A stretch of DNA of 17,890 nt from a virus. The position numbers and the translations under genes are program-made. Below the pieces are notes generated by a model that was not told where the DNA came from, ran no database searches, and saw only the letters and a list, made by a program, of their open reading frames with translations. Shown one piece after another: positions 3,510 to 17,840 of the stretch. The DNA lies in the UHGV virus genome UHGV-0122684. One strand, given 5' to 3'. Positions within the stretch are counted from its first letter, which is position 1. Every line of letters begins with the position of its first letter.

Positions 3510-4565
3510 TTAAGCTTTCGCAATTACGCCGATCGCCAGCGCCCGATCCATAAAACGCAGTAGCAGCTCAAGCTGCGTACCATGCTTCTGCTCGAATGCC
3601 GGTACATCGGCGTGCAGCTCATCGTGGCACTCTCTGCACAGAGGGATCACGAAGAGGTCATGGGCTTTTGTTGCTGTACCACCCATACCGTGCCCTACGA
3701 TATGGTGCGGATCATCTGCTGGCCGTCGGCAACACTCACACGGTTGTGTTTTAACCCAGCGGGTGTACGTATCATTTACCCAGCGGCGACGTTTTGGCCT
3801 GAGCATGAAAGACTCCGGAGACTCCGGATCGACGGTTAACGTCAGTATTGGCTTTTGGGTTTCCACATCCAGGCTGTCTGACCGCCGAGCTGGTAACGTT
3901 TCAATCGGCCTGACTTTTTCCTGCATAATGCTGGTGGCCGGCGGCATAGGTACGATGTCACTTTCCCGGTAAACAGATAATAATGGTTCGTCTGGCAACC
4001 GTAGTGCCCGTTGCGCCATTCCTTCAGTGACGGCATCAGCGACACCTGACTGAACAGCCCACCAGCAAAGCTCGGCTAAAGAGAGGGAGCGCTCTTTGTT
4101 GTAGCCAAGCCCAACCAGTACGGTATCAATAACCCACTCGGCAACATTGCTCAGGGCAAGCGCCTGCAGCCTCTCCGTAGTCTGCCCACGCAATTTGTTA
4201 TCGCAATGCCAGCACACCACCAGCGCGCCAGGCGGATGCCATAGTGTTGTGAGCTCGGCATGATGGTAGTCAGAAACAGGGTACTGGCACTTTTTAACGC
4301 GCTGACGAAGCCAGTACTCAAGCCCGGACATACCACCAGCAGCAGTAATGACCCGTTCATCGGTAAAGAAAGTGTGAAGGCTGGCATCATCCAGTAGCGG
4401 TTGCTGTGCATCGGGGATCCGACCAGACGGAAGCCGGGCCATGTTTTCTGGCTCCCGTTCAACCAGCACGCGACCTGATGCAAACAGGGGCATTAACTCC
4501 CGTCCTGGCTTGAACAGCACCACGCCAAGGCGTGGCACCATTTCAGGGGTAAGTAAGGCTCTCAA
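3510..4565 (-). CDS. DUF968-like phage protein with C-terminal HNH/zinc-finger-like Cys/His motif
   Basis: 351-aa ORF abutting the Q-like gene. C-terminal region CECCRRP...HHIVGHGMGG...CRECHDELH resembles an HNH-type metal-binding nuclease motif. Size and position upstream of Q match what I recall for YdfU-like DUF968 proteins in the E. coli Qin prophage (from memory). Confidence 0.7.
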   Translation of the reverse strand: MRALLTPEMVPRLGVVLFKPGRELMPLFASGRVLVEREPENMARLPSGRIPDAQQPLLDDASLHTFFTDERVITAAGGMSGLEYWLRQRVKKCQYPVSDYHHAELTTLWHPPGALVVCWHCDNKLRGQTTERLQALALSNVAEWVIDTVLVGLGYNKERSLSLAELCWWAVQSGVADAVTEGMAQRALRLPDEPLLSVYRESDIVPMPPATSIMQEKVRPIETLPARRSDSLDVETQKPILTLTVDPESPESFMLRPKRRRWVNDTYTRWVKTQPCECCRRPADDPHHIVGHGMGGTATKAHDLFVIPLCRECHDELHADVPAFEQKHGTQLELLLRFMDRALAIGVIAKA

Positions 4566-4575
4566 TGCCCACCCC

Positions 4576-5097
4576 TTATACCGTCAGATCTTTAAATTTC
4601 TGTACGGCCTTCCCCATGTCCGCCATAGCATCCACAAACTCATCAAACTTACGGCTTGCCATTCCATAAGCCTGGAGGATTTCAAGCTTCAGAGGATCGA
4701 GTTGCTTTTTTATTTCAGCGCGGTCACCTGCCTTTTTTTCAGCTTCTTCAGCGGCACGAATGAGGGCTTCAGCCTGCTTGCGTAATTCTTCAGGGGTCAC
4801 GGTTGGCTTATTCATAGTGGCTTCCTTCAATGTCTTCGACGACGCAATAACCGGCGCCACGGATTTATGACCAAACTTAGGGTGATGCAGGGTTGTTGTC
4901 CTGCCGTCATCAGTAATGCAGAGCAGGCTGTTTTCGCGGATGATATCGATCAGGTTTTCTTTATCCTTCCGGCTCAACGAGCTATATGCTGATACTTTGT
5001 GCGTCAGATGGGTGAGCGTTGCCCCATCAGGTTGTTTTTCAACAAACCGTTTAACCCTGGACAATACAGGCTGAAAGTGCGGAGGGGTCACTCTCAC
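4576..5097 (-). CDS. hypothetical two-part protein (N-terminal wHTH-like region, C-terminal coiled-coil-like region)
   Basis: 173-aa ORF whose ATG overlaps the stop of the upstream antirepressor gene (ATGA at 5094-5097). An internal in-frame ATG at 4813-4815 is preceded by a strong SD (GAAGGAAG), so a separately translated 78-aa C-terminal product is possible. Confidence 0.55.
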   Translation of the reverse strand: MRVTPPHFQPVLSRVKRFVEKQPDGATLTHLTHKVSAYSSLSRKDKENLIDIIRENSLLCITDDGRTTTLHHPKFGHKSVAPVIASSKTLKEATMNKPTVTPEELRKQAEALIRAAEEAEKKAGDRAEIKKQLDPLKLEILQAYGMASRKFDEFVDAMADMGKAVQKFKDLTV

Positions 5098-5915
5098 TGG
5101 AGACCCCCTGCTAAATCTTTATCGTGGGTAAAACTACCGTTCCAGGTGACCTTCATCGGAAGCTTCCCCTTCAGGTAGTTTTTGTACAGCCAGACAGCGC
5201 CTTCACGCAGCAGGACGGGCTGGTAGGTAGTAAAGCTCACCGCAGAGTTTGGCGATACTTTACTGCTTTTCTCGGTGAGGTATTTGTCGCGGGCATACGA
5301 ACGAACACGCCACTGTGCACTGCGGCCTTCGGGATTGTCGTCGTACAGCCAGTTAGCAGAGACAAGCCAGGCACTGATCTTGGAGGTATTCACACCATTC
5401 AAACGCTTACAGAACTGTACAGGGGAAAGCCCGTCAGTGAAGAGACTCTCGAGATGCTCGATATATTCGGCCTGCTGGTGGGTAACTGTTTCCGCGCGCT
5501 GCCTGGCTTCAAATTCATCAGCCCATGCTCTCGCAGCCTGTGCCGGATCAGAGAAATTTGGTAATGATGGTGTACCAACTCGCATTTTCGCTTGTTGTTC
5601 GCATGTGATGAAATAACGACGAACCTGACGACCCTTCTCGTTTCTCTCCACCATCGCCAGTTCTTTACCCATATCAATGGTGATCAGGTAATCAACGGTT
5701 GGGCGTCCACCGAGGGGGTTCTCGCCAGAATTGGCGTAAACCACATAATCAGTATTTTCAGCAAAACCATACTGACTGATACGCCCTTTAATCCAGTTGG
5801 TGAAATCACGCCCAACGCCGAGAAAGGCATGTAACCTTTTAGCGCTGACCATCGGGGTTATGTGGTTGCCAATATTGCCCTGAGTGATCGGGATGATCTG
5901 ATGTAGCTGACTCAT
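5094..5915 (-). CDS. phage antirepressor-like protein (AntA/AntB-type N-terminal domain)
   Basis: 273-aa ORF. N-terminus PITQGN...VSAKRLHAFLGVGRDFTNWIKGRISQYGFAENTDYVVYAN matches the AntA/AntB antirepressor domain pattern as I recall it. Start overlaps the stop of the KilA-N gene (5912-5915). Confidence 0.8.
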   Translation of the reverse strand: MSQLHQIIPITQGNIGNHITPMVSAKRLHAFLGVGRDFTNWIKGRISQYGFAENTDYVVYANSGENPLGGRPTVDYLITIDMGKELAMVERNEKGRQVRRYFITCEQQAKMRVGTPSLPNFSDPAQAARAWADEFEARQRAETVTHQQAEYIEHLESLFTDGLSPVQFCKRLNGVNTSKISAWLVSANWLYDDNPEGRSAQWRVRSYARDKYLTEKSSKVSPNSAVSFTTYQPVLLREGAVWLYKNYLKGKLPMKVTWNGSFTHDKDLAGGLQ

Positions 5916-6369: not shown

Positions 6370-6768
6370 TCAACCCACAGCTGGACATATAACCACCTCT
6401 TTTTTATATGCCGTTATGGTTATCTCAACTTTTCCCTTCGGTACTATCGGTCCCCATTCCACCAGCATGCGCTTAATCTGGCTGTCGTCTTCCCAGACAC
6501 CCGCATGCGTCAGCGCGTCAAACAGGGCTTTGTTGTAATTATCGATATCCCGGCGGCGAGCATCCGGCGGGTACAGCGTGATTTCTACCGCTGCCAGTTC
6601 AGTCGATGGCTTCGGGAGACGTCGTAATTGCTCAATGATCGCCACGCAGGCAGCGCTCTGGTATTTACGGCCATCAGCGCTAATGAGGTGACGACCGGCC
6701 AGCGGCCCCTTGTTAGGGGCGCGCCAGTAAGTGTTCACGCTCGGAGGAAAAGGCAGGACCAGTTTCAC
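6370..6768 (-). CDS. rusA: RusA-family Holliday junction resolvase
   Basis: 132-aa ORF beginning MKLVLPFPPSVNTYW, the characteristic RusA N-terminal motif, with acidic residues further on (DIDNYNKALFDAL). Start overlaps the stop of the upstream 439-aa gene. Confidence 0.85.
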   Translation of the reverse strand: MKLVLPFPPSVNTYWRAPNKGPLAGRHLISADGRKYQSAACVAIIEQLRRLPKPSTELAAVEITLYPPDARRRDIDNYNKALFDALTHAGVWEDDSQIKRMLVEWGPIVPKGKVEITITAYKKEVVICPAVG

Positions 6769-8084
6769 GCGGCCTCTCCCCGCATATTGCGAACAAGTTC
6801 AGAAGCAGCAGTAATGATTTCGCTGGTGGCAGTCCGCTCCAGCCAGAGTTGATTGATATTGGCTTTCAGCTTGTGTTGCAGTGACTCATCCAGCATGTCA
6901 GCACCATCCACCTGGTCGAATACAATTCTAACCTCCAGCGGCCAGATACGGGACTCGGGAAGCGGATCCGATACTGGTTTAGCTTTCTCACGAATGTGCA
7001 TGCGGATCTGGCGAATATTGGACCAACTGGAAACATCCAGGCTTCCCATGGCTGCAATGAAGTCAGTGCTGTTCATGCCATATTCACCGGATGCTTCAAG
7101 GGCAACAGTGCGAATACGTTCCGACATATCCAGGCGCACAGCAGCGTCATCGAATTCAATCGACAACAGCCACTCATCCACACCGAACAAAATACTCTCA
7201 CGAATAAGCAGCTTCGCTTTGTCGATCGTTAAAGGTGATACCTGAGTGAATTCCGGTGCTTCGACAGAATCCGCCGCCCAGGTATGCCCAAACTTCGATT
7301 CACTGAATGTGTATTCTTCTTTATCGCCAAACGCAGCTCTAACGCATGCCCACGCCTCGACACCGCTGATAGCAAAAATATCTTTCTGGGTGAGTGGCAA
7401 CTCTGCTTCTGGCTTATCAGCTGCAGGAGGTCTGGCAGTTACAGGTTGAGACTTGCTGGCAGCAAATTGTGGCAAAGCCATAAACGCCCGCCCTTTTGCC
7501 TCCAGTTCTGTGCGGTTGATATAGCTGAACCGCTCGCCACGCCATGACTTATCGAATACAGCTATGGCACCGGCAAAAAACGCGCTGGTGGGCTTCTGTT
7601 TTTCGTCAGCCGGTATAAACCACACAGGCAGATCGAACCCAATGCGCCCGCGAATGAATACAATGTGATCGGCATCTTCCGGCCACCACGTTTCACTCGG
7701 CGCGGCTTTTATCAGGAATACATAGCGACCGCCCTTCTCGCGCTGGGCTGCTGCGTACTTCATGATGTGCGTCATACCAGTGATCGCCTGTTTCTCGTGA
7801 TACTGCGAACGGCTATACTGTGGGTTGCCATAACCAGCGCCACCCAGTTCTGTAAGACGTTCAGACCAGTCCTGCGTCAGCGCGTTATCTTCGGCGGTGT
7901 ACCATGCCGGGCATTTCGCGTTGTCGTCGTCAGCAAACAAGTCCAGAACTAATGGACCAAATAGTGCGTTGATCCCCCAAAACAGCAGATCCGGTGTTCG
8001 CCACTGATCGCCAACTTCTTTCAATTCGTGAGCTGGTTTACTGCGCAGTTCTGCCAGCGCCTGGCAATATTTATTTGGCATCAT
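6765..8084 (-). CDS. protein with N-terminal phage Dam-like N6-adenine methyltransferase fold and long C-terminal extension
   Basis: 439-aa ORF translationally coupled to the O-like gene (ATGA overlap at 8081-8084). N-terminal about 180 aa read WRTPDLLFWGINALFGPLVLDLFADDDNAKCPAWYTAEDNALTQDW ... GYGNPQYS ... VFLIKAAPSETWWPED ... IVFIRGRIGF, matching the small phage Dam-family pattern as I recall it, but with NPQY where NPPY/DPPY is expected. No Walker A motif seen, so it does not look like a helicase or helicase loader. Confidence 0.65.
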   Translation of the reverse strand: MMPNKYCQALAELRSKPAHELKEVGDQWRTPDLLFWGINALFGPLVLDLFADDDNAKCPAWYTAEDNALTQDWSERLTELGGAGYGNPQYSRSQYHEKQAITGMTHIMKYAAAQREKGGRYVFLIKAAPSETWWPEDADHIVFIRGRIGFDLPVWFIPADEKQKPTSAFFAGAIAVFDKSWRGERFSYINRTELEAKGRAFMALPQFAASKSQPVTARPPAADKPEAELPLTQKDIFAISGVEAWACVRAAFGDKEEYTFSESKFGHTWAADSVEAPEFTQVSPLTIDKAKLLIRESILFGVDEWLLSIEFDDAAVRLDMSERIRTVALEASGEYGMNSTDFIAAMGSLDVSSWSNIRQIRMHIREKAKPVSDPLPESRIWPLEVRIVFDQVDGADMLDESLQHKLKANINQLWLERTATSEIITAASELVRNMRGEAA

Positions 8085-9850: not shown

Positions 9851-10096
9851 TTATTCCTGTGGTTTTATGTCTGTACTAACGCCTGTACAGTTCGAATAGC
9901 GATGTGGATAAAGGATTTCTAGCTCATTGATTTTTCCCGAGAAGAAACGGACTAGACGTTCAGCAATATCTAGGGAAGCAATTTGCTGCCCTCGCTCTAT
10001 CCGACTTAGATTTCCCGGGTCGATATCAACCCCTTTTGCTACATAGGAAAGAGTCATACCTTGCGATTTACGCAAGATTCGTAACGGTGATTGCAT
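9851..10096 (-). CDS. cro: Cro-like repressor (XRE-family HTH)
   Basis: 81-aa ORF divergent from cI, with perfect SD AAGGAGGG upstream of the ATG at 10094-10096. HTH segment QGMTLSYVAKGVDIDPGNLSRIERGQ. Confidence 0.8.
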   Translation of the reverse strand: MQSPLRILRKSQGMTLSYVAKGVDIDPGNLSRIERGQQIASLDIAERLVRFFSGKINELEILYPHRYSNCTGVSTDIKPQE

Positions 10097-10193
10097 ATAC
10101 CCTCCTTTAATTGCGTAAAACGCATATTAATTGGAACATACGACTTGCGCAAGTTGCTTTGCACATCACGCAAAAAAAACATGTAATAGACGC
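10097..10193. promoter_or_regulatory. OR-like operator/promoter region (divergent pR and pRM candidates, repressor operators)
   Basis: Inverted repeats with TTGCG/CGCAA half-sites: TTGCGTAAAACGCA (10111-10124), CTTGCGCAAG (10145-10154), TTGCACATCACGCAA (10159-10173). Candidate pR on the minus strand is TTGCGC (plus 10147-10152), 17-nt spacer, TAATAT (plus 10124-10129). Candidate pRM on the plus strand is TTGCAC (10159-10164), 17-nt spacer, TGTAAT (10182-10187), ending 6 nt before the cI ATG, which implies a leaderless cI mRNA as at lambda pRM. Confidence 0.6.
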
Positions 10194-10886
10194 ATGAACA
10201 TAGGAAACCGCATAAGAGAACTTCGCACTGCGAAGGGTCTAAAAATCGCTGATCTTGCTGAAGCCGTTGGTGTCGACGGAGCGAACATCTCGCGCGTAGA
10301 AACCGGCAAACAGAAGTCATTTACTGAACAATCACTTAGCAAATATGCTCAAGCTTTAGGCGTTAGCGTTGCTGATCTATTTACTCCAGAAGGAAATAAA
10401 ACTACTGTATGTGAATACAGTGGTAGTAACCCACATTCTGGAGATGGATCTGTGTTTAGAGTGGAGATTCTTGATGTAAGTGCCAGCGCTGGTGGTGGAT
10501 TTATTCAAGGCAGCGATATTATTGATGTCATCAGGTCAATCGAATACAACAATGAACGTGCACTAGCGATGTTCGGCGGAAGAACGGCAGATCAAGTAAA
10601 AGTAATCAACGTTCGAGGCGACAGTATGGCTGAGACAATTGAACCTGGTGATCTTCTCTTCGTTGATATCTCTATTCATGAATTCGATGGTGATGGAATA
10701 TATGTATTTGGTTTTGATGATAAAATTTACGTCAAACGATTACAGATGATACCTGATATGTTGTTGGTTATATCGGATAACCCAAAATATAGAGAATGGT
10801 CTGTGGACGAGACAAACGAACACCGTTTTTACATTTTTGGGAAAGTAATGATAAGCCAATCTCAATCATTCAAACGCCACGCCTGA
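10194..10886 (+). CDS. cI: CI-like repressor (N-terminal XRE HTH, C-terminal S24 LexA-like autopeptidase domain)
   Basis: Translation from the ATG at 10194: MNIGNRIRELRTAKGLKIADLAEAVGVDGANISRVETGK (HTH), with C-terminal VRGDSM (Ser nucleophile) and VKRL (Lys) motifs of RecA-stimulated self-cleaving repressors. The ORF-track version starts at an upstream TTG (10131) inside the operator region, which is unlikely to be the real start. Confidence 0.9.
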   Translation: MNIGNRIRELRTAKGLKIADLAEAVGVDGANISRVETGKQKSFTEQSLSKYAQALGVSVADLFTPEGNKTTVCEYSGSNPHSGDGSVFRVEILDVSASAGGGFIQGSDIIDVIRSIEYNNERALAMFGGRTADQVKVINVRGDSMAETIEPGDLLFVDISIHEFDGDGIYVFGFDDKIYVKRLQMIPDMLLVISDNPKYREWSVDETNEHRFYIFGKVMISQSQSFKRHA

Positions 10887-11962: not shown

Positions 11963-12334
11963 ATGAGTAATGACCGCATGACCGTAGTGCCAGATTTTCT
12001 TGGCGAACTGGATGCCGGCGTGTTCATGAACAAAATCGCGGCAGCACTTAATACCACCGCGCTTGGCGTTCTGAACAACGGCAACAAAGGCAAAGTAGTC
12101 CTCACCTTTGATTTTGAGCGTATGGGTAATTCCGTTGAAGAGAAGCGCGTCAAGATCAAGCACAAGCTGAACTACAGCACCCCGACACCGCGTGGTAAAG
12201 CCTCCGAGGAGGACACAACCGAAACCCCGATGTGGGTCAACAAAGGCGGGAAGCTCACCATCCTGCAGGAAGATCAGTGCCAGCTGTTCGGGATCACTGG
12301 CGCGGTGGATGGAAAGCTTAAAGCGGCTCAGTGA
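11963..12334 (+). CDS. hypothetical early-left protein (YfdP-like by position and size)
   Basis: 123-aa ORF with SD GAGGGT upstream. It is the first gene of the plus-strand early operon. The YfdP-like label rests only on size and synteny recalled for E. coli CPS-53, not on sequence comparison. Confidence 0.6.
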   Translation: MSNDRMTVVPDFLGELDAGVFMNKIAAALNTTALGVLNNGNKGKVVLTFDFERMGNSVEEKRVKIKHKLNYSTPTPRGKASEEDTTETPMWVNKGGKLTILQEDQCQLFGITGAVDGKLKAAQ

Positions 12335-12390: not shown

Positions 12391-13218
12391 ATGTCTCAGT
12401 TAGACAGCGGTACATTTCAGCAGGTAAAAGACCTGGTCCTTTCTGGCTACCACCTGAATGATATTCATGGCCTGGCTTGCCCGACCGCATTGCTGCCAGA
12501 TGGTACTAGCGTTGAAAGCCTTGAGCGCTTTTCTCTGGAGCGTTTCCGCTTCCGTGGTGCAATGACAACAACCAGTATTGACGATTTCGCACGTTATTCT
12601 AAAGGTTACGCCAGCGCCAGCGAGCCAGCCCGTTGCTTCATTGACGCTGACAACATGACCGCTCGTTCAGTGTTCAACATCGGCACCCTGGATAATCCCG
12701 GTCACGCCGATAACGTTGCTTCAATCACCCTGAAGAAAACCGCCCCGTTCCGCGCGCTATTGCAGATCGATGGTCAACGCCTGAAGCAAAAGCAAATCGC
12801 CGAATGGCTGGAAGACTGGAGCGATTACCTCCTGGCGTTTGATGCTGATGGCAATACGATGCAGATTTCCCAGGCTGCTCAGGCTGTGCGTCGTATCACT
12901 ATTCAGCAAGCAACACAGCAGGACCATGAAACTGGTGATTTCGCTGGTAAAAAATCGCTGATGCAAAGCGTTGAAGCAAGCAGCAAAGACGTAATGCCTG
13001 TGGCGTTCGAGTTCAAATGTGTGCCATATGAAGGTCTGGGCGAACGCCGCTTTAGCTTGCGTAACAGCCTGCTGACCAGCGATGAACCCTGCTTTGTTCT
13101 GCGCATCGTCCAACTTGAAGCCCAGGAAGAAGAGATCGCCAACGAATTACGCGATTTGCTGATCAGCAAGTTCGAAGGTGAATCAGTGGAAACTTTCATC
13201 GGTAACTTTAAAGCCTAA
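12391..13218 (+). CDS. hypothetical protein (YfdQ-like by size and synteny)
   Basis: 275-aa ORF with SD AAGGA upstream. Size and position before an HD-domain gene match the yfdQ-yfdR arrangement I recall in E. coli CPS-53; not verified by sequence comparison. Confidence 0.7.
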   Translation: MSQLDSGTFQQVKDLVLSGYHLNDIHGLACPTALLPDGTSVESLERFSLERFRFRGAMTTTSIDDFARYSKGYASASEPARCFIDADNMTARSVFNIGTLDNPGHADNVASITLKKTAPFRALLQIDGQRLKQKQIAEWLEDWSDYLLAFDADGNTMQISQAAQAVRRITIQQATQQDHETGDFAGKKSLMQSVEASSKDVMPVAFEFKCVPYEGLGERRFSLRNSLLTSDEPCFVLRIVQLEAQEEEIANELRDLLISKFEGESVETFIGNFKA

Positions 13219-13230
13219 TTGCTCTGCATT

Positions 13231-13258
13231 AAATCCCCGGCGCCGCGGGGATTTATTG
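13231..13258 (+). terminator. intra-operon terminator-like GC hairpin
   Basis: AAATCCCCG-GCGCCG-CGGGGATTT (9-bp stem) followed by ATTTATT, 12 nt after the stop of the 275-aa gene and before the HD-domain gene. Confidence 0.45.
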
Positions 13259-13346
13259 AAGCGTAATTCCATTAATTATCGCCAACCGGCGAGGGATTCG
13301 TGCAACCAAAATCTGCGCGGTGCAGCGCGCCAATATGGAGAAAACC

Positions 13347-13886
13347 ATGAGCTACATTCAAACATTATCCGGTAAAAAATTTAACTACCTGACCGCCACA
13401 ATCGACGATATCGATGTTGAAGATATCGCGACAGCTCTTTCCAACATCTGTCGATTCGCCGGGCATCTGCCAGAGTTTTACAGTGTGGCTCAGCACTCTG
13501 TGCTTGTTAGCCAGATTGTGCCGCCAGAGTTCGCATTTGAAGCGCTGATGCACGACGCTGCGGAGGCATATTGCCAGGACATTCCTGCCCCGCTCAAAGC
13601 CCTGTTACCAGACTACCAACGCATGGAAACTTATGTTGATGGTCTTATCCGCTTTAAATTCGGTATCTCTCTTGAACAAGCTGCTGTCGTGAAATATGCC
13701 GATCTCACCATGTTAGCCACCGAGCGCCGTGATCTGGAAATCGATGACGGTTCGAAGTGGGAAATTCTCGAAGGTATTCCCTGCTCTGATCTCGTTCAGG
13801 TTATCCCTCTCCGTCCTGGTCAAGCCTATGGCCTGTTCATGAATCGCTTTAACGAACTGATGGATCTGCGCCAATGCGCCGCATGA
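13347..13886 (+). CDS. HD-domain phosphohydrolase (YfdR-like by size and position)
   Basis: About 179 aa from the ATG at 13347 (GGAG 6 nt upstream). Contains the His...His-Asp metal-binding motif (VAQHSVL ... EALMHDAAEAY) of the HD superfamily. The ORF track extends it upstream to a GTG at 13320. Confidence 0.8.
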   Translation: MSYIQTLSGKKFNYLTATIDDIDVEDIATALSNICRFAGHLPEFYSVAQHSVLVSQIVPPEFAFEALMHDAAEAYCQDIPAPLKALLPDYQRMETYVDGLIRFKFGISLEQAAVVKYADLTMLATERRDLEIDDGSKWEILEGIPCSDLVQVIPLRPGQAYGLFMNRFNELMDLRQCAA

Positions 13887-14050
13887 AGGTAAAAGAACTC
13901 GTAGCGGAGGCTTTTGCCTCCGTTGATGAATTGCCACCAAAGCATGCACCGCTTATGCGCGAAATCGCCACCAGACTGGAGGCTACGTTCGCAGCATTAA
14001 AAGAGTCTCTGGTGCAACTGGAACAGGAACGTAAAGGTAAAACGCCATGA
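13883..14050 (+). CDS. small hypothetical protein (55 aa), translationally coupled; not in the ORF track
   Basis: Its ATG at 13883-13885 overlaps the HD-gene stop (ATGA) and its stop overlaps the next ATG (ATGA at 14047-14050). My translation: MKVKELVAEAFASVDELPPKHAPLMREIATRLEATFAALKESLVQLEQERKGKTP, helical and charged. Perfect coupling on both sides supports a real gene. Confidence 0.45.
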   Translation: MKVKELVAEAFASVDELPPKHAPLMREIATRLEATFAALKESLVQLEQERKGKTP

Positions 14051-14301
14051 CCGTATTTGAATATCTCCAGGCTCATCCGAATACCACCAGCGGTGAAATC
14101 GCCAAAGGTATGAACAAAAAGACACCCGCGGTCGCTGGCGCATTATCGCAACTCTATGGCACCGGCCGGATTGTGAAGTCAGGTGTTCGCAAGGGAATTC
14201 CTACTTACCGTGTTAACGATATGCCGTTTGGGTGCAGTAACAGCTTAACCATGATGTTTAACCAGCTATTAAACACAGCCAGAAAGGGAGCTGCACAATG
14301 A
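14047..14301 (+). CDS. small winged-helix DNA-binding protein (hypothetical)
   Basis: 84-aa ORF. wHTH-like segment TSGEIAKGMNKKTPAVAGALSQLYGTGRIVKSG. ATGA overlaps at both ends. Confidence 0.6.
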   Translation: MTVFEYLQAHPNTTSGEIAKGMNKKTPAVAGALSQLYGTGRIVKSGVRKGIPTYRVNDMPFGCSNSLTMMFNQLLNTARKGAAQ

Positions 14302-14642
14302 GTAAATCTCTGAACGCACGTTGCATCCGTCGCTGGACCGTCGAATTTAAAGGCCGCTGCGACTCGAAACACAGTCCGTACTGGCGTAAGCACCACCTTC
14401 GCAGTTACATCCGGGAATGTGCCCTGACTACCGCTGATTGCATGGTAGAGCGTATGGCAGAGGATAATGCGATGGTAGATTTTCAGGGGACTAATCGAGG
14501 GTGGTCGCCGGAGTTCTCTGCCTGGTACCACGAACGCCGTGAACAGTATCTCAAAGAAGCTCGTGACTATCTGAACGAAGACGCCACCAATGACGAGATC
14601 GACGAGGAAATCCAGAACGAGCTGGAGGCCTGGAATGACTAA
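14298..14642 (+). CDS. hypothetical protein (114 aa), basic N-terminus and acidic C-terminus
   Basis: Start overlaps the upstream stop (ATGA at 14298-14301). Contains several Cys/His (CIRRW...CDSKHSPYWRKHH...C...C) and an acidic tail (NEDATNDEIDEEIQNELEAWND). Confidence 0.6.
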   Translation: MSKSLNARCIRRWTVEFKGRCDSKHSPYWRKHHLRSYIRECALTTADCMVERMAEDNAMVDFQGTNRGWSPEFSAWYHERREQYLKEARDYLNEDATNDEIDEEIQNELEAWND

Positions 14643-14967
14643 CTCACTCAACAAACTGGATTTAGACGACGCGCTGGATTTTGACCTTTTCGAAGGTGAT
14701 TTCGGTACTCCATGCGATACAGAACTATCGAACAAAATCGTTACCTCTCGCGGCGAATACAAATGCCACATTTGCGCTGGCGTAATTTTGAAGGATGAAA
14801 TTCACCGTAGTACGGCGTGGAAATTCGACGGCGAACTTATGTCCTATCGGTGCTGCAACGATTGCTGCGTGGCGATGGTGAAAAGCGTCAATGGTGAATA
14901 CGAAGAAGAGGACCCGATAGAAGCGCGTTACGCGCTGGGCCATCAACGTAGGGGGTGGGAAGCATGA
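14635..14967 (+). CDS. Cys-rich putative zinc-ribbon protein (110 aa)
   Basis: ATG at 14635 overlaps the upstream stop. Carries C-x2-C (CHIC) and later C-C-x2-C-C (CCNDCC) clusters consistent with a zinc ribbon. The ORF-track version starts upstream at 14590 in the same frame. Confidence 0.6.
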   Translation: MTNSLNKLDLDDALDFDLFEGDFGTPCDTELSNKIVTSRGEYKCHICAGVILKDEIHRSTAWKFDGELMSYRCCNDCCVAMVKSVNGEYEEEDPIEARYALGHQRRGWEA

Positions 14968-15620
14968 CAACTAACAGCCACCCGGCGAACGGTCTTGTAT
15001 CACTCGATCGCCTGTACCAGATACGCGAAATACTCAGCAAAGCAGCAAAACAAAGCGACGGCGGTAATCTCGGCTACGCAATGGCTGATGCTGTGAAGGT
15101 GATTAATGGGGTGATTGCATCGTTTGGTGCAGAGCCTGTGGCGTGGATAGTTCACGCTCGTGCCGGTGACCAGTTAACCAATGACGGCAACTACGTTGCT
15201 AATGCAGAAGGCATGGGTGGTATTCACTCGACTCCACTCTACACCGCCCCGCCAGCGCCAGTAGTACCGGAGGAAAAACGCGACGAGGACGGCAATACCA
15301 CTTCTGAGTTTGACCACGGCTGGAACGCCTGCCGCGCCGCCATGCTTCAGGCTGGCAACTCTCCGACAATTCCGGATGGTTACGTTCTGGTGCCAAATAG
15401 GCTAACCGCTGAGAACGGCGCTAAGGGCGTGCTATCCGGTGAGTTTTCAGAAACGAAGTTTATAAACTGCCCGGAGTGTTTTGGCGAAGATGAGTGCGAA
15501 ACATGTGACGGTAGCGGAAGGCTTGAAATTACCGTTCCTGTCACCTGGACGACCATCAAAGCTATTTGGGCTAAAGGTGTCGAGCATTTCGAAGCAGCAA
15601 CGCAGCAGGAGAATGTATAA
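14964..15620 (+). CDS. hypothetical protein (about 219 aa) with C-terminal DnaJ-type CxxCxGxG zinc-finger-like motif
   Basis: ATG at 14964 overlaps the upstream stop (ATGA). C-terminal CPECFGEDECETCDGSGR contains the CxxCxGxG signature. Pro/Ala-rich linker in the middle. Confidence 0.6.
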   Translation: MTTNSHPANGLVSLDRLYQIREILSKAAKQSDGGNLGYAMADAVKVINGVIASFGAEPVAWIVHARAGDQLTNDGNYVANAEGMGGIHSTPLYTAPPAPVVPEEKRDEDGNTTSEFDHGWNACRAAMLQAGNSPTIPDGYVLVPNRLTAENGAKGVLSGEFSETKFINCPECFGEDECETCDGSGRLEITVPVTWTTIKAIWAKGVEHFEAATQQENV

Positions 15621-16194
15621 CGTGAACAATTTAATGATCGACCTTGAATCCATGGGCAAAAAACCAAATGCCCCTATCGTCTCCATTGGTGCCGTGTTCT
15701 TCGATCCGCAAAGCGGTGAACTGGGTCAGGAGTTTTACACCGCCGTTAACCTTGAAAGTGCTATGGAACAGGGAGCAGTGCCGGATGGTGACACTATTCT
15801 GTGGTGGTTAAAACAAAGCCCAGAAGCACGATCAGCAATCTGTGTTGAAGATGCTCTGCCAATATCATCTGCCCTATCTGAACTGAGCCATTTCATTAAT
15901 CGGCATTCTGATAACCCTAAATATTTAAAAGTTTGGGGCAATGGAGCTACTTTCGACAACGTTATATTGCGCGGAGCATATGAACGTGCCGGCCAGGTTT
16001 GCCCGTGGCAATTTTGGAATGATCACGACGTCAGAACCATCGTCACATTAGGCAGAGTTGTGGGTTTCGATCCTAAGCGAGACATGCCATTCGATGGGGT
16101 GGCACATAACGCACTGGCCGATGCGCGCCATCAGGCAAAATACGTGTCCGCGATCTGGCAGAAATTGATTCCGACCACCAGCAGCGAGCTTTAA
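15613..16194 (+). CDS. DEDDh-family 3'-5' exonuclease
   Basis: From the ATG at 15613 (SD AGGAGA upstream): Exo I motif IDLESMG (Asp-x-Glu), a central WGNGATFD motif and Exo III motif HNALADARH (His...Asp). The ORF-track version (from 15481) extends upstream into the previous gene and is unlikely. Confidence 0.8.
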   Translation: MYNVNNLMIDLESMGKKPNAPIVSIGAVFFDPQSGELGQEFYTAVNLESAMEQGAVPDGDTILWWLKQSPEARSAICVEDALPISSALSELSHFINRHSDNPKYLKVWGNGATFDNVILRGAYERAGQVCPWQFWNDHDVRTIVTLGRVVGFDPKRDMPFDGVAHNALADARHQAKYVSAIWQKLIPTTSSEL

Positions 16195-16231: not shown

Positions 16232-16468
16232 ATGAGCAATATTTTCCAGTTAGCCCCCAACGAGTGGGTTTGTGAAAGCGTTCTTATCGCGGTTACCGGG
16301 CTCAAGCCCGGTACCATCCTACGGGCAAGAAAAGAATGCTGGATGGTCGGGAGGGAGTATATCCACGTATCACCTGACGGGAATCCTAAACCTTCCAGTG
16401 AGTGCATGTATAACAGAAAGGCTGTAGATGCCTGGGTCGCTTCAATGAAAAGCAAGCAGCCAGGGTGA
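16232..16468 (+). CDS. xis: excisionase (lambda Xis / TorI-like)
   Basis: 78-aa ORF immediately upstream of the integrase. Small basic protein with the winged-helix pattern WVCESVLIAVTGLKPGTILRARKECWMVGREYIHVSPDG typical of phage excisionases. Confidence 0.65.
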   Translation: MSNIFQLAPNEWVCESVLIAVTGLKPGTILRARKECWMVGREYIHVSPDGNPKPSSECMYNRKAVDAWVASMKSKQPG

Positions 16469-16526: not shown

Positions 16527-17840
16527 ATGGATAAAGTCACATATCCAACAGGCGTCGAAAACCACGGTGGCACATTACGCATCTGGTTTAATTTTAAAGG
16601 TAAGCGTGTCAGGGAAAGTCTCGGTGTCCCTGACACCGCTAAGAACAGGAAGATAGCCGGAGAACTGCGGACATCAGTATGTTTTGCCATCCGCACAGGA
16701 ACCTTTGATTATGCAACCCAGTTTCCTGACTCCCCTAACCTCAAGGCTTTTGGTGTAAGTAAAAAAGACATAACAGTAAAAGAACTTGAAGAAAAGTGGC
16801 TGGATCTGAAACGGATGGAAATCTGCGCGAACGCATTCAATCGCTATGAGTCCGTCGCAAGGAATATGGTGCCGAGGATCGGAGGTAATCGCCTGGTGTC
16901 AGCAGTAACCAAAGAGGAATTGCTGTATCTCAGGAAAGATTTGCTAACTGGTTACCAGAATCCGACGAAAAACAAATCCCCGGCAAAAGGGCGAAGCGTT
17001 GTTACTGTGAACTATTACATGACGACAATGGCCGGAATGTTTCAGTTTGCTGCGGATCACGGTTACTTAGAAGTGAACCCATTCGAGGGAATTAAGCCTC
17101 TGAAAAAAGCCAGGGCAGAACCAGATCCTCTTTCTCGTGATGAATTTATTCGCCTGATAGATGCATGCCGGCATCAGCAGACTAAAAACCTGTGGTCATT
17201 AGCAGTGTACACAGGAATGCGTCACGGGGAACTGGTCTCCCTGGCCTGGGAAGATATCGATCTGAAGGCGGGAACAATTACCGTCAGGCGTAATTATACG
17301 AAACTTGGTGAGTTCACTCTACCGAAAACCGAGGCAAGCACAGATCGAGTGGTGCATCTTATCCAGCCCGCAATCAGTATCCTGAAAAATCAGGCTGAAA
17401 TGACAAGGCTGGGCAGGCAACATCACATTGAAGTTCAGTTACGTGAGTATGGCCGTTCGGTGAACCATGAGTGTACATTCGTCTTTAACCCGCATGTGGT
17501 CAGACGCAGTAAGCAGGTCGGATTTATCTACCGGGTCGATTCAGTAGGCGACTCCTGGGAAGCGGCACTAAAGCGCGCAGGGATCAGACACAGAAAGGCG
17601 TACCAGTCACGACATACCTATGCGTGCTGGTCATTATCTGCTGGTGCAAACCCGAGTTTTATTGCCAGTCAGATGGGGCATGCGAGCGCGCAGATGGTGT
17701 TCAATGTTTACGGTGCATGGATGGCTGACAGCAGCGCAGAGCAGATCGCAATGCTCAATCAGAAGCTGGCAGATTTTGCCCCATTGATGCCCCATAGCCA
17801 CGAGAGCAGTACGGGAGGATTATTAAAATCAGTAAGTTAA
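16527..17840 (+). CDS. int: tyrosine integrase (lambda Int family)
   Basis: 437-aa ORF with SD GGAGGT. The C-terminal catalytic region shows the tyrosine recombinase signature residues: R in YTGMRHGEL, H-x-x-R in SRHTYA, and a later His and nucleophile Tyr (QMGHASAQMVFNVYGAWM). The N-terminal region is consistent with an arm-binding domain. Confidence 0.9.
   Translation: MDKVTYPTGVENHGGTLRIWFNFKGKRVRESLGVPDTAKNRKIAGELRTSVCFAIRTGTFDYATQFPDSPNLKAFGVSKKDITVKELEEKWLDLKRMEICANAFNRYESVARNMVPRIGGNRLVSAVTKEELLYLRKDLLTGYQNPTKNKSPAKGRSVVTVNYYMTTMAGMFQFAADHGYLEVNPFEGIKPLKKARAEPDPLSRDEFIRLIDACRHQQTKNLWSLAVYTGMRHGELVSLAWEDIDLKAGTITVRRNYTKLGEFTLPKTEASTDRVVHLIQPAISILKNQAEMTRLGRQHHIEVQLREYGRSVNHECTFVFNPHVVRRSKQVGFIYRVDSVGDSWEAALKRAGIRHRKAYQSRHTYACWSLSAGANPSFIASQMGHASAQMVFNVYGAWMADSSAEQIAMLNQKLADFAPLMPHSHESSTGGLLKSVS

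Follow-up and report, generated by a model that had tools for sequence, protein, structure and literature searches.

Do small genes that overlap one another in a phage operon encode partners that act together, or do they share a position from which each can be exchanged singly? The question is raised by the virus genome UHGV-0122684, of which the whole stretch analysed here, 17,890 nucleotides (nt) long, is called the window. Five consecutive open reading frames (ORFs), which we name gA to gE, occupy positions 13883-15620 between an HD-domain gene and an exonuclease gene. A sequence-only reading of this DNA, made by a model without database searches, had proposed that they form an uncharacterized module whose products are probably made together in stoichiometric amounts. 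Our analysis makes it likely that the stretch belongs to the early-left (pL-type) operon of a lambdoid relative of prophage CPS-53/KplE1 and forms a variable accessory segment there, in which the genes are separately swappable. The five genes are real and uncharacterized, and a mosaic accessory region is ordinary for such phages.

Co-occurrence and overlap of the five genes

The ORF listing and the raw sequence agree that five consecutive overlapping small genes lie between the HD gene and the exonuclease gene, as the sequence-only reading had stated. From the HD gene through gE the gaps are, in order, -4, -4, -4, -8 and -4 nt, with a stop/start overlap at every one: the HD/gA, gA/gB, gB/gC and gD/gE junctions are each ATGA, a 4-nt overlap, and the gC/gD junction is ATGACTAA, an 8-nt overlap. 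The ATGA-type or short overlaps that had been described are thereby confirmed for four ATGA junctions and one 8-nt junction, the gE/exonuclease junction being ambiguous. An exonuclease start at ATG 15613 would give ATGTATAA and an 8-nt overlap, with an AGGAGA Shine-Dalgarno (SD) sequence that abuts the start and is too close to it; the alternative start, GTG 15622, is 1 nt past the stop of gE, has an ideally spaced SD and is the one used by public gene calls on identical DNA. The product sizes proposed earlier hold for gA to gD (Table 1), and the gE product, given as about 219 residues, has 218.

To compare gene content, we assembled about 440 related loci, including IMG/VR loci anchored on gA, gB, gC, gD, gE or the HD gene and GTDB genomes anchored on gC. 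Each pattern-based scan contributed at most its best 80 matches, and all window proteins were scored against the fetched loci. Among the gA-anchored loci, the HD gene was present in 76/77 and gB in 73/77; gC was present in 22, gD in 6 and gE in 30. The commonest pattern in the gA- and gB-anchored loci was gA with gB and without gC, gD and gE. At the loci anchored on gC, this gene stood without gA, gB, gD and gE in 53 of 80, and gD was alone in 19 of the 30 loci anchored on it. The full five-gene set was recovered from one IMG/VR contig, one E. coli genome (of 5426) and one Citrobacter lineage; in complete E. coli genomes, at least 80% of the region was found in 1/5426 and some piece of it in 466.

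The alleles themselves are reassorted gene by gene among related prophages, as per-gene identity jumps at gene borders. In one related locus (L280) the nucleotide identity to the window was 99.3% for the HD gene, 97.0% for gA, 87.5% for gB, 97.1% for gC and 100% for both gD and gE; in another (L125) gB and gC exceeded 99% identity, and gD and gE were missing. The genes found directly after gB, gC and gD belong to 19-20 unrelated protein clusters each, which include DUF550-like, ASCH-like and methyltransferase proteins and many Ea22-like proteins. As a single gene, gC occurs in a Mu-like phage beside gemA and in virulent Hafnia phages, and gB relatives (40-45% identity) stand alone in the P2-like phage P88 and in Stx phages. 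A test for a conserved multi-gene module failed, in that only the HD gene and gA co-occur consistently, with gB added in the nearest clade.

The overlaps are kept whatever gene follows, so they say nothing about partnership. The gap after gC was -8 nt in 79/85 unique junctions, in 72 of which the next gene was neither gD nor gE. After gB, the gap was -4 nt in 65/80 and another gene followed in 57; the same -4 nt gap was found after gD in 16/25 junctions and between the HD gene and gA in 78/93. Where unrelated DNA lies downstream (28-30 junctions), mean column identity stays at about 0.9 as far as the gB or gC stop codon and drops to about 0.4 over the next few codons. The last codons of gC (…GAGCTGGAGGCCTGGAATGAC TAA/TGA) supply a GGAGG SD and an ATG for any gene attached there, so the downstream proteins all begin MT(N/D/E). 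Overlapping junctions are also no peculiarity of the five-gene stretch: in the early-right operon, on the opposite strand of the window, four junctions overlap by exactly 4 nt and three by more. In lambdoid genomes such as HK97, HK022 and HK620 it is normal for mosaic boundaries to fall at gene junctions. On these comparisons, the overlaps seem to result from generic compaction and to act as shared joints for recombination; they do not look like a mark of partnership.

Translation signals divide the chain in two. The anti-SD pairing energies were -3.1 kcal/mol for gA, -3.9 for gB, -7.6 for gC, -9.3 for gD and -10.6 for gE, against a background of -2.4 ± 2.5. Hence gA and gB are downstream cistrons without an SD of their own (about background), and gC, gD and gE have strong SDs embedded in the 3' end of the preceding gene. 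From this pattern we infer that gA, and probably gB, would be translated by termination-reinitiation from the HD gene and that gC, gD and gE would initiate translation independently.

The sequence-only reading would have the five genes form one module, with coupling that fixes stoichiometry and a joint complex serving host takeover, anti-defence or exclusion. Every internal junction does overlap, the chain is intact in Citrobacter and gut-metagenome contigs (identical gE in at least 24; chain present at 4/4 places with listed genes), and E. coli FAM21845 carries the entire chain at 84-86% identity. We nonetheless consider such a module very improbable, and co-occurrence appears largely to refute it: the genes are mostly found apart, their alleles reassort singly, and the same overlaps join gB, gC and gD to many unrelated families and are equally common in the window's other operon. 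Stoichiometric co-expression is contradicted by the poor co-occurrence, by the overlaps with unrelated genes and by the strong SDs that gC, gD and gE possess. The name "module" does not fit genes of which gC, gD and gE mostly occur without the others; against the refuting condition that the sequence-only reading had named, the ORFs are individually conserved but their pairing is not.

All five ORFs are under purifying selection in the + frame and are not chance reading frames. The median ratio of nonsynonymous to synonymous substitution rates (dN/dS) against homologues was 0.18 for gA, 0.09 for gB, 0.07 for gC, 0.06 for gD and 0.12 for the C-terminal domain of gE, which marks the five as real protein-coding genes. 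That some of them, notably the 55-residue gA, could be chance frames or shadows of an antisense ORF is hardly credible. It is true that gA is very short and lacks an SD and that an ATG-initiated ORF of 188 codons (14205-14771, - strand) runs antisense to gB, gC and gD; however, in the + frame every one of the five has a dN/dS far under 1, all have a PHROG match at E <= 1e-16, and independent public annotations call all five as genes. Because dN/dS supports the + frames, it is the antisense ORF that is probably a shadow of the + strand genes.

The HD gene, gA and the DnaA question

The only constant linkage in the region is that from the YfdR-like HD gene to gA, joined by gB in the closest clade. 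An A-like gene came next in 74 of the 80 HD-anchored loci, and the motif MKVKELVA.A….LPP….LMRE.ATRLD.TF.AL.E starts 59/61 distinct proteins encoded directly after the HD gene, usually with a -4 overlap. The proteins that carry it are either 55-66 residues long or Ea22-like mosaic proteins of 83-234 residues, of which it forms the head. In the closest HD clade (at least 95% HD identity) gB follows gA in 40/43 loci; it is absent with more distant HD genes.

K-12 YfdR is a 5'-deoxynucleotidase, and to our knowledge YfdQ and YfdR are the sole prophage proteins so far reported to bind domain I of DnaA. The binding of K-12 YfdR to DnaA depends on Phe46 (PMC4776307). In multicopy, K-12 yfdQ and yfdR together with yfdS or yfdT inhibited initiation at oriC, yfdQR alone being insufficient, and pull-downs gave no sign of strong affinity between YfdQ, YfdS or YfdT and either YfdR or DnaA (PMC4776307).

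We also considered gA as a homologue of the YfdS N-terminus or of YfdT. The resemblance was visual only, and the candidate was rejected when the A-family profile gave an hhalign probability of 1.5%. BLASTP of gA to gE against YfdS, YfdT and YpdJ gave E > 0.4, and no DUF551 match was found in Pfam.

It is conceivable, though we entertain the idea only tentatively, that the HD protein, gA and gB constitute a three-part, DnaA-directed inhibitor of host replication in which gA and gB take the role of YfdS or YfdT, gC, gD and gE being unrelated passengers. The HD-to-gA step is near-invariant and overlapping, gB regularly follows gA in the closest HD clade, gA and gB lack an SD, so that their translation should depend on the HD gene, and residues matching the YfdR HD motif are present in the HD protein by visual reading. 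The need of K-12 yfdQR for downstream yfdS or yfdT would fit as well. On the other hand, the profile comparison gives no homology to YfdS or YfdT, the K-12 pull-downs do not favour a complex of this kind, and gB is missing beside distant HD genes, its relatives in P88 and Stx phages standing without the HD gene or gA. Moreover, the A motif is often a mere N-terminal head of longer Ea22-like proteins, and its constancy may stem from a conserved recombination joint, not from function.

The five products

Searches of Pfam, NCBIfam, PADLOC and PDB returned no significant match for gA to gE, in agreement with the statement of the sequence-only reading that none of them is a characterized protein; for PDB this rests on sequence and profile searches with gA to gE. 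The PHROG families that they match are all of unknown function, except that of gB, which is labelled a MarR-family regulator. Transmembrane-like segments were absent from gA to gE, and all five are predicted to be soluble. The earlier descriptions of gB as a winged helix, of gC as a protein with a basic N-terminus and an acidic tail and of gD as carrying a Cys cluster all agree with the results given below, and that of gE as CxxCxGxG zinc-finger-like stands for the motif, with a correction to one C4 site.

The gA protein matches phrog_12248 (1e-31), has no Cys and has no PDB relative. The gB protein matches phrog_1687 (5.6e-25, "MarR"), is basic (pI 10.1) and ends in a conserved tail, NDMPFGC.N..T..FNQLL. 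Its residues 1-55 align weakly with small winged helix-turn-helix (wHTH) proteins (PapI/FaeA, FeoC, Z-alpha): the PDB profile search gave sub-threshold matches to PKZ Z-alpha, PapI, MepR/MarR and FeoC at E 0.03-1, by which gB looks like a small wHTH protein. Curated wHTH models gave 14.4 bits for Pfam FaeA and 14.0 bits for FeoC, under their cut-offs, and nothing in NCBIfam. Its identity is 41% to P88 gp09 and 40% to a Stx-phage protein, both annotated as "MarR family"; unlike true MarR proteins, however, gB is half their size and has a unique conserved tail. P88 gp08, encoded upstream of the gB homologue, was tried as an A-like protein and is not A-like.

The gC protein is an orphan with a charge of +8, -4 and -10 in its successive thirds and a nearly invariant acidic C-terminus, DEIDEEIQNELEAWND. 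Its predicted structure is a confidently modelled four-helix protein, and structure searches with this model found no fold neighbour. With no invariant Cys other than C9 and C21, it does not qualify as a zinc protein. In the Mu-like Escherichia phage PhiR68_1 a gC homologue with 67% identity (L442 2501-2842) lies directly upstream of gemA, in the Mu semi-essential early region, with an 8-nt stop/start overlap as in the window.

In their alignments, both gD and gE carry a conserved Cys4 site. Of the seven Cys residues of gD, C44, C47, C74, C77 and C78 are invariant in an alignment of 31 homologue clusters. The protein is acidic, has the conserved motifs FEGDFG and KFDGELM and matches phrog_19515 (1e-16). 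Against Pfam DUF7576 (PF24461), a domain whose function is not known, it scored 17.5 bits (E 0.0038), below the 27-bit gathering score; precomputed tables assign PF24461 to 3/31 gD homologue clusters. Two candidate identities for gD were rejected, an Ea8.5-like zinc protein (hhalign probability 0.5%) and a TraR/Orf73-like zinc protein (1.1% versus Orf73, which was compared with gD only, by hhalign).

The gE protein matches phrog_60 (1e-24) and has more than 6559 relatives. A conserved head (residues 1-57) and a conserved C-terminal domain (134-218) enclose a hypervariable middle; the C-terminal domain bears one C4 knuckle, whose motif CPECFGEDECETCDGSG places Cys at C169, C172, C178 and C181; only these four Cys are conserved there, so the finger is a single C4 site. 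Two adjacent DnaJ-type motifs, CPECFGED and then CETCDGSG, could hold one zinc ion, whereas the Cys-rich domain of DnaJ has four CxxCxGxG repeats and two Zn centres. No match to Pfam DnaJ_CXXCXGXG was obtained, and the PDB match to DnaJ had E = 8.6. The head (14964-15134) has a dN/dS of about 0.67 against homologues, far above the 0.06-0.18 of the remaining region, which may reflect relaxed or diversifying selection or the pooling of two paralogous kinds of head among the sequences compared.

This build of head, swapped middle and portable C-terminal domain resembles that of the mosaic proteins known as ead/Ea22-like and EaA in lambdoid and P22-like phages, and phage proteins annotated as Ea22, EaA or ST64B Sb31 have 69-72% identity to the gE C-terminal domain. 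Lambda Ea22 itself shows no similarity to gE, no match to the ead/Ea22 models of Pfam and NCBIfam was found, and the C4 zinc knuckle of the gE C-terminal domain is unlike the lambda Ea22 C-terminal domain or DUF551. The AF2 model of gE is poor (pLDDT 54; C-terminal domain <45), too poor for a fold search, and has no long coiled coil; its quality is probably due to low variation in the alignment there.

We further asked what these products might do singly. One or more of them, with gC and gD as the best candidates, might be stand-alone counter-defence effectors (anti-restriction or anti-Abi) or superinfection-exclusion effectors, which we judge unlikely. The early accessory position suits such a role, as does the fact that gC, which is under strong purifying selection and keeps its acidic tail invariant, recurs as a single-gene cassette in lambdoid, Mu-like and virulent phages, and at least one gE relative (P0238) has the Lar restriction-alleviation Pfam domain PF14354. 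However, PADLOC gave no match for gA to gE and only a weak DEDDh match, to the exonuclease, and no known family was matched; the lack of transmembrane segments argues against membrane-type exclusion proteins, and gC has no fold neighbour.

The surrounding prophage and its known relatives

The window is an arm of a lambdoid prophage (Table 1), with Cro-like, CII-like and replication genes on the - strand. The cI-like repressor gene marks the start of the leftward early arm, which here lies on the + strand and runs in the order repressor, YfdP-like, DUF2303, HD, gA to gE, exonuclease, excisionase (xis) and integrase (int). The placement in an early-left operon made by the sequence-only reading stands, with the repressor upstream and xis and int downstream. 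Beyond the integrase, a DUF72 gene abuts the prophage end in relatives. A sequence scan found no + strand promoter-like or terminator-like site within 13883-15620, and Rfam gave no match inside this interval. For the HD gene, the SD energy was -6.4 kcal/mol at ATG 13347 versus +0.6 at GTG 13320.

Table 1. Genes of the early-left arm and the adjoining immunity region, with the evidence for each
Feature	Positions	Strand	Details and evidence
Cro-like gene	9851-10096	-	Part of the immunity region (9851-10886)
cI-like repressor (HTH + S24 peptidase)	10131-10886	+	Pfam Peptidase_S24 6.7e-20, HTH_3 4e-11
YfdP-like gene	11963-12334	+	Counterpart in public contigs with identical gE tagged PF27127 YfdP
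YfdQ homologue (DUF2303)	12391-13218	+	Pfam DUF2303 1.8e-66; 57% identity to K-12 YfdQ, full length
YfdR-like HD-domain gene	13347-13886	+	67% identity to K-12 YfdR (178 aa, E 3.5e-91); phrog_318 3e-96
gA	13883-14050	+	55 aa (58 aa from alternative ATG 13874); ORF listing and raw sequence
gB	14047-14301	+	84 aa; ORF listing and raw sequence
gC	14298-14642	+	114 aa; ORF listing and raw sequence
gD	14635-14967	+	110 aa; ORF listing and raw sequence
gE	14964-15620	+	218 aa; ORF listing and raw sequence
Rv2179c-like 3'-5' exonuclease	15622-16194 (start GTG 15622 or ATG 15613)	+	Pfam PF16473 3e-74
Excisionase (DUF1233)	16232-16468	+	Pfam 2.3e-32
Tyrosine integrase	16527-17840	+	Annotated relatives

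The public contigs that encode an identical gE protein come from Citrobacter genomes and a human-gut metagenome, and where their genes are listed the prophage adjoins the DUF72 gene. Given the identical gE and the chain in Citrobacter contigs, the host is most likely a member of the Citrobacter freundii complex. Four Citrobacter prophages (L446-L449, about 1100-2700) have left-arm genes identical to those of the window and immunity regions that differ from window 9851-10886, with a P22_Cro-type as against an HTH_3-type Cro and repressors of unequal length; the immunity region is exchanged independently of the left arm among Citrobacter prophages. A further related prophage, on IMG/VR contig IMGVR_UViG_3300009092_000441 (L168/L210), has about 90-95% identity to parts of the window. 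In E. coli FAM21845, which has the full chain, a recombination-associated gene annotated rdgC (L001 3008-3925) and not YfdQ/DUF2303 lies upstream of the HD gene, so that slot is likewise swappable.

Between the YfdQ-like and YfdR-like genes lies a 128-nt non-coding gap (13219-13346), similar to the 127-nt yfdQ-yfdR gap of K-12. Within it, at 13330-13315 of the - strand, there is a hairpin resembling a terminator (GCGCGC…GCGC and then a T-run), and this could represent a bidirectional or an antisense element. The early-right arm, on the - strand, contains two DNA methyltransferase genes (6765-8084 and 1164-2216), one for a 439-residue protein that has a Dam domain (PF05869) at its N-terminus and a long, uncharacterized C-terminal half and the other of the N6_N4_Mtase type (PF01555). 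Also encoded there (3510-4565 and 5094-5915) are a DUF968 protein, which gives a weak HNH-like signal, and an antirepressor of the AntA/AntB type.

Among the closest known arrangements is the yfd cluster of CPS-53/KplE1, described by Noguchi & Katayama 2016 (PMC4776307). In K-12, yfdP-yfdQ-yfdR-yfdS-yfdT-ypdJ-torI has the same order and strand logic, with yfdP, yfdQ and yfdR followed by overlapping small genes and an excisionase, and in both CPS-53 and the window the HD gene is overlapped by its downstream neighbour by at least 4 nt. The two differ in that gA to gE have no detectable similarity to YfdS (DUF551), YfdT or YpdJ and in that the window has the Rv2179c-like exonuclease, with xis and int adjacent.

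A second parallel is lambda's exo-xis region (orf60a, orf63, orf61, orf73, ea22, ea8.5, orf55), which has the same pL-operon position beside xis-int and partly overlapping small ORFs. That region is early, non-essential and mosaic, modulates the lysis-lysogeny decision and encodes the modular protein Ea22 as well as small zinc proteins of the C4 type (Orf73/TraR-like, Ea8.5) (PMC10834534, PMC8614690). BLASTP of gA to gE against lambda orf61, orf63, orf60a, ea22, ea8.5 and p35 gave nothing at E < 1. By sequence comparison, then, gA to gE appear to be positional counterparts of the exo-xis and yfdS-yfdT-ypdJ genes, not homologues of them.

Under the reading of a swappable accessory segment, the block would be driven by the early-left promoter upon induction or infection, and its overlapping junctions would provide compaction and short shared joints where recombination swaps cassettes. 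The products would work singly and would modulate host physiology without being essential, gB by binding nucleic acid, gD and gE through a Zn-stabilized interaction domain and gC via its invariant acidic tail. The YfdP/Q/R-like genes, perhaps with gA and gB, would most plausibly damp DnaA-driven initiation of host replication, by analogy with K-12 yfdQRST.

Several points weigh against this reading. The loci compared are not phylogenetically independent, and the co-occurrence fractions are descriptive, not natural frequencies. The complete chain is stably kept in one Citrobacter lineage, so the combination is not selected against. Pairwise distances of the HD gene and gA correlate at r = 0.42, no better than those of other gene pairs, and are uninformative on co-inheritance. 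Functional statements on gA to gE are by analogy throughout. Since gA to gE are not homologous to YfdS and YfdT, the transfer of the DnaA account is weakened, and the authors of the K-12 work themselves cautioned that the overexpression effect might be an artefact (PMC4776307).

We conclude that the separately swappable accessory segment is the likely reading of this chain and that a run of ATGA junctions in a lambdoid early operon is not evidence of a protein complex. Two more specific roles can be put forward, of which it is doubtful that either applies: gA may be an obligate, reinitiation-translated partner of the HD protein, perhaps together with gB, that shuts down DnaA-dependent initiation, or gC may be a new stand-alone host-targeting or counter-defence effector. 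If the former were true, it would account for the dependence of K-12 yfdQR on a downstream gene. The HD-gA pair, near-invariant, with gA lacking an SD and lying beside YfdQ and YfdR homologues, offers a concrete partner for study in the DnaA system. As a widespread, strongly conserved orphan early protein, gC is a reasonable candidate for host-takeover and counter-defence screens.

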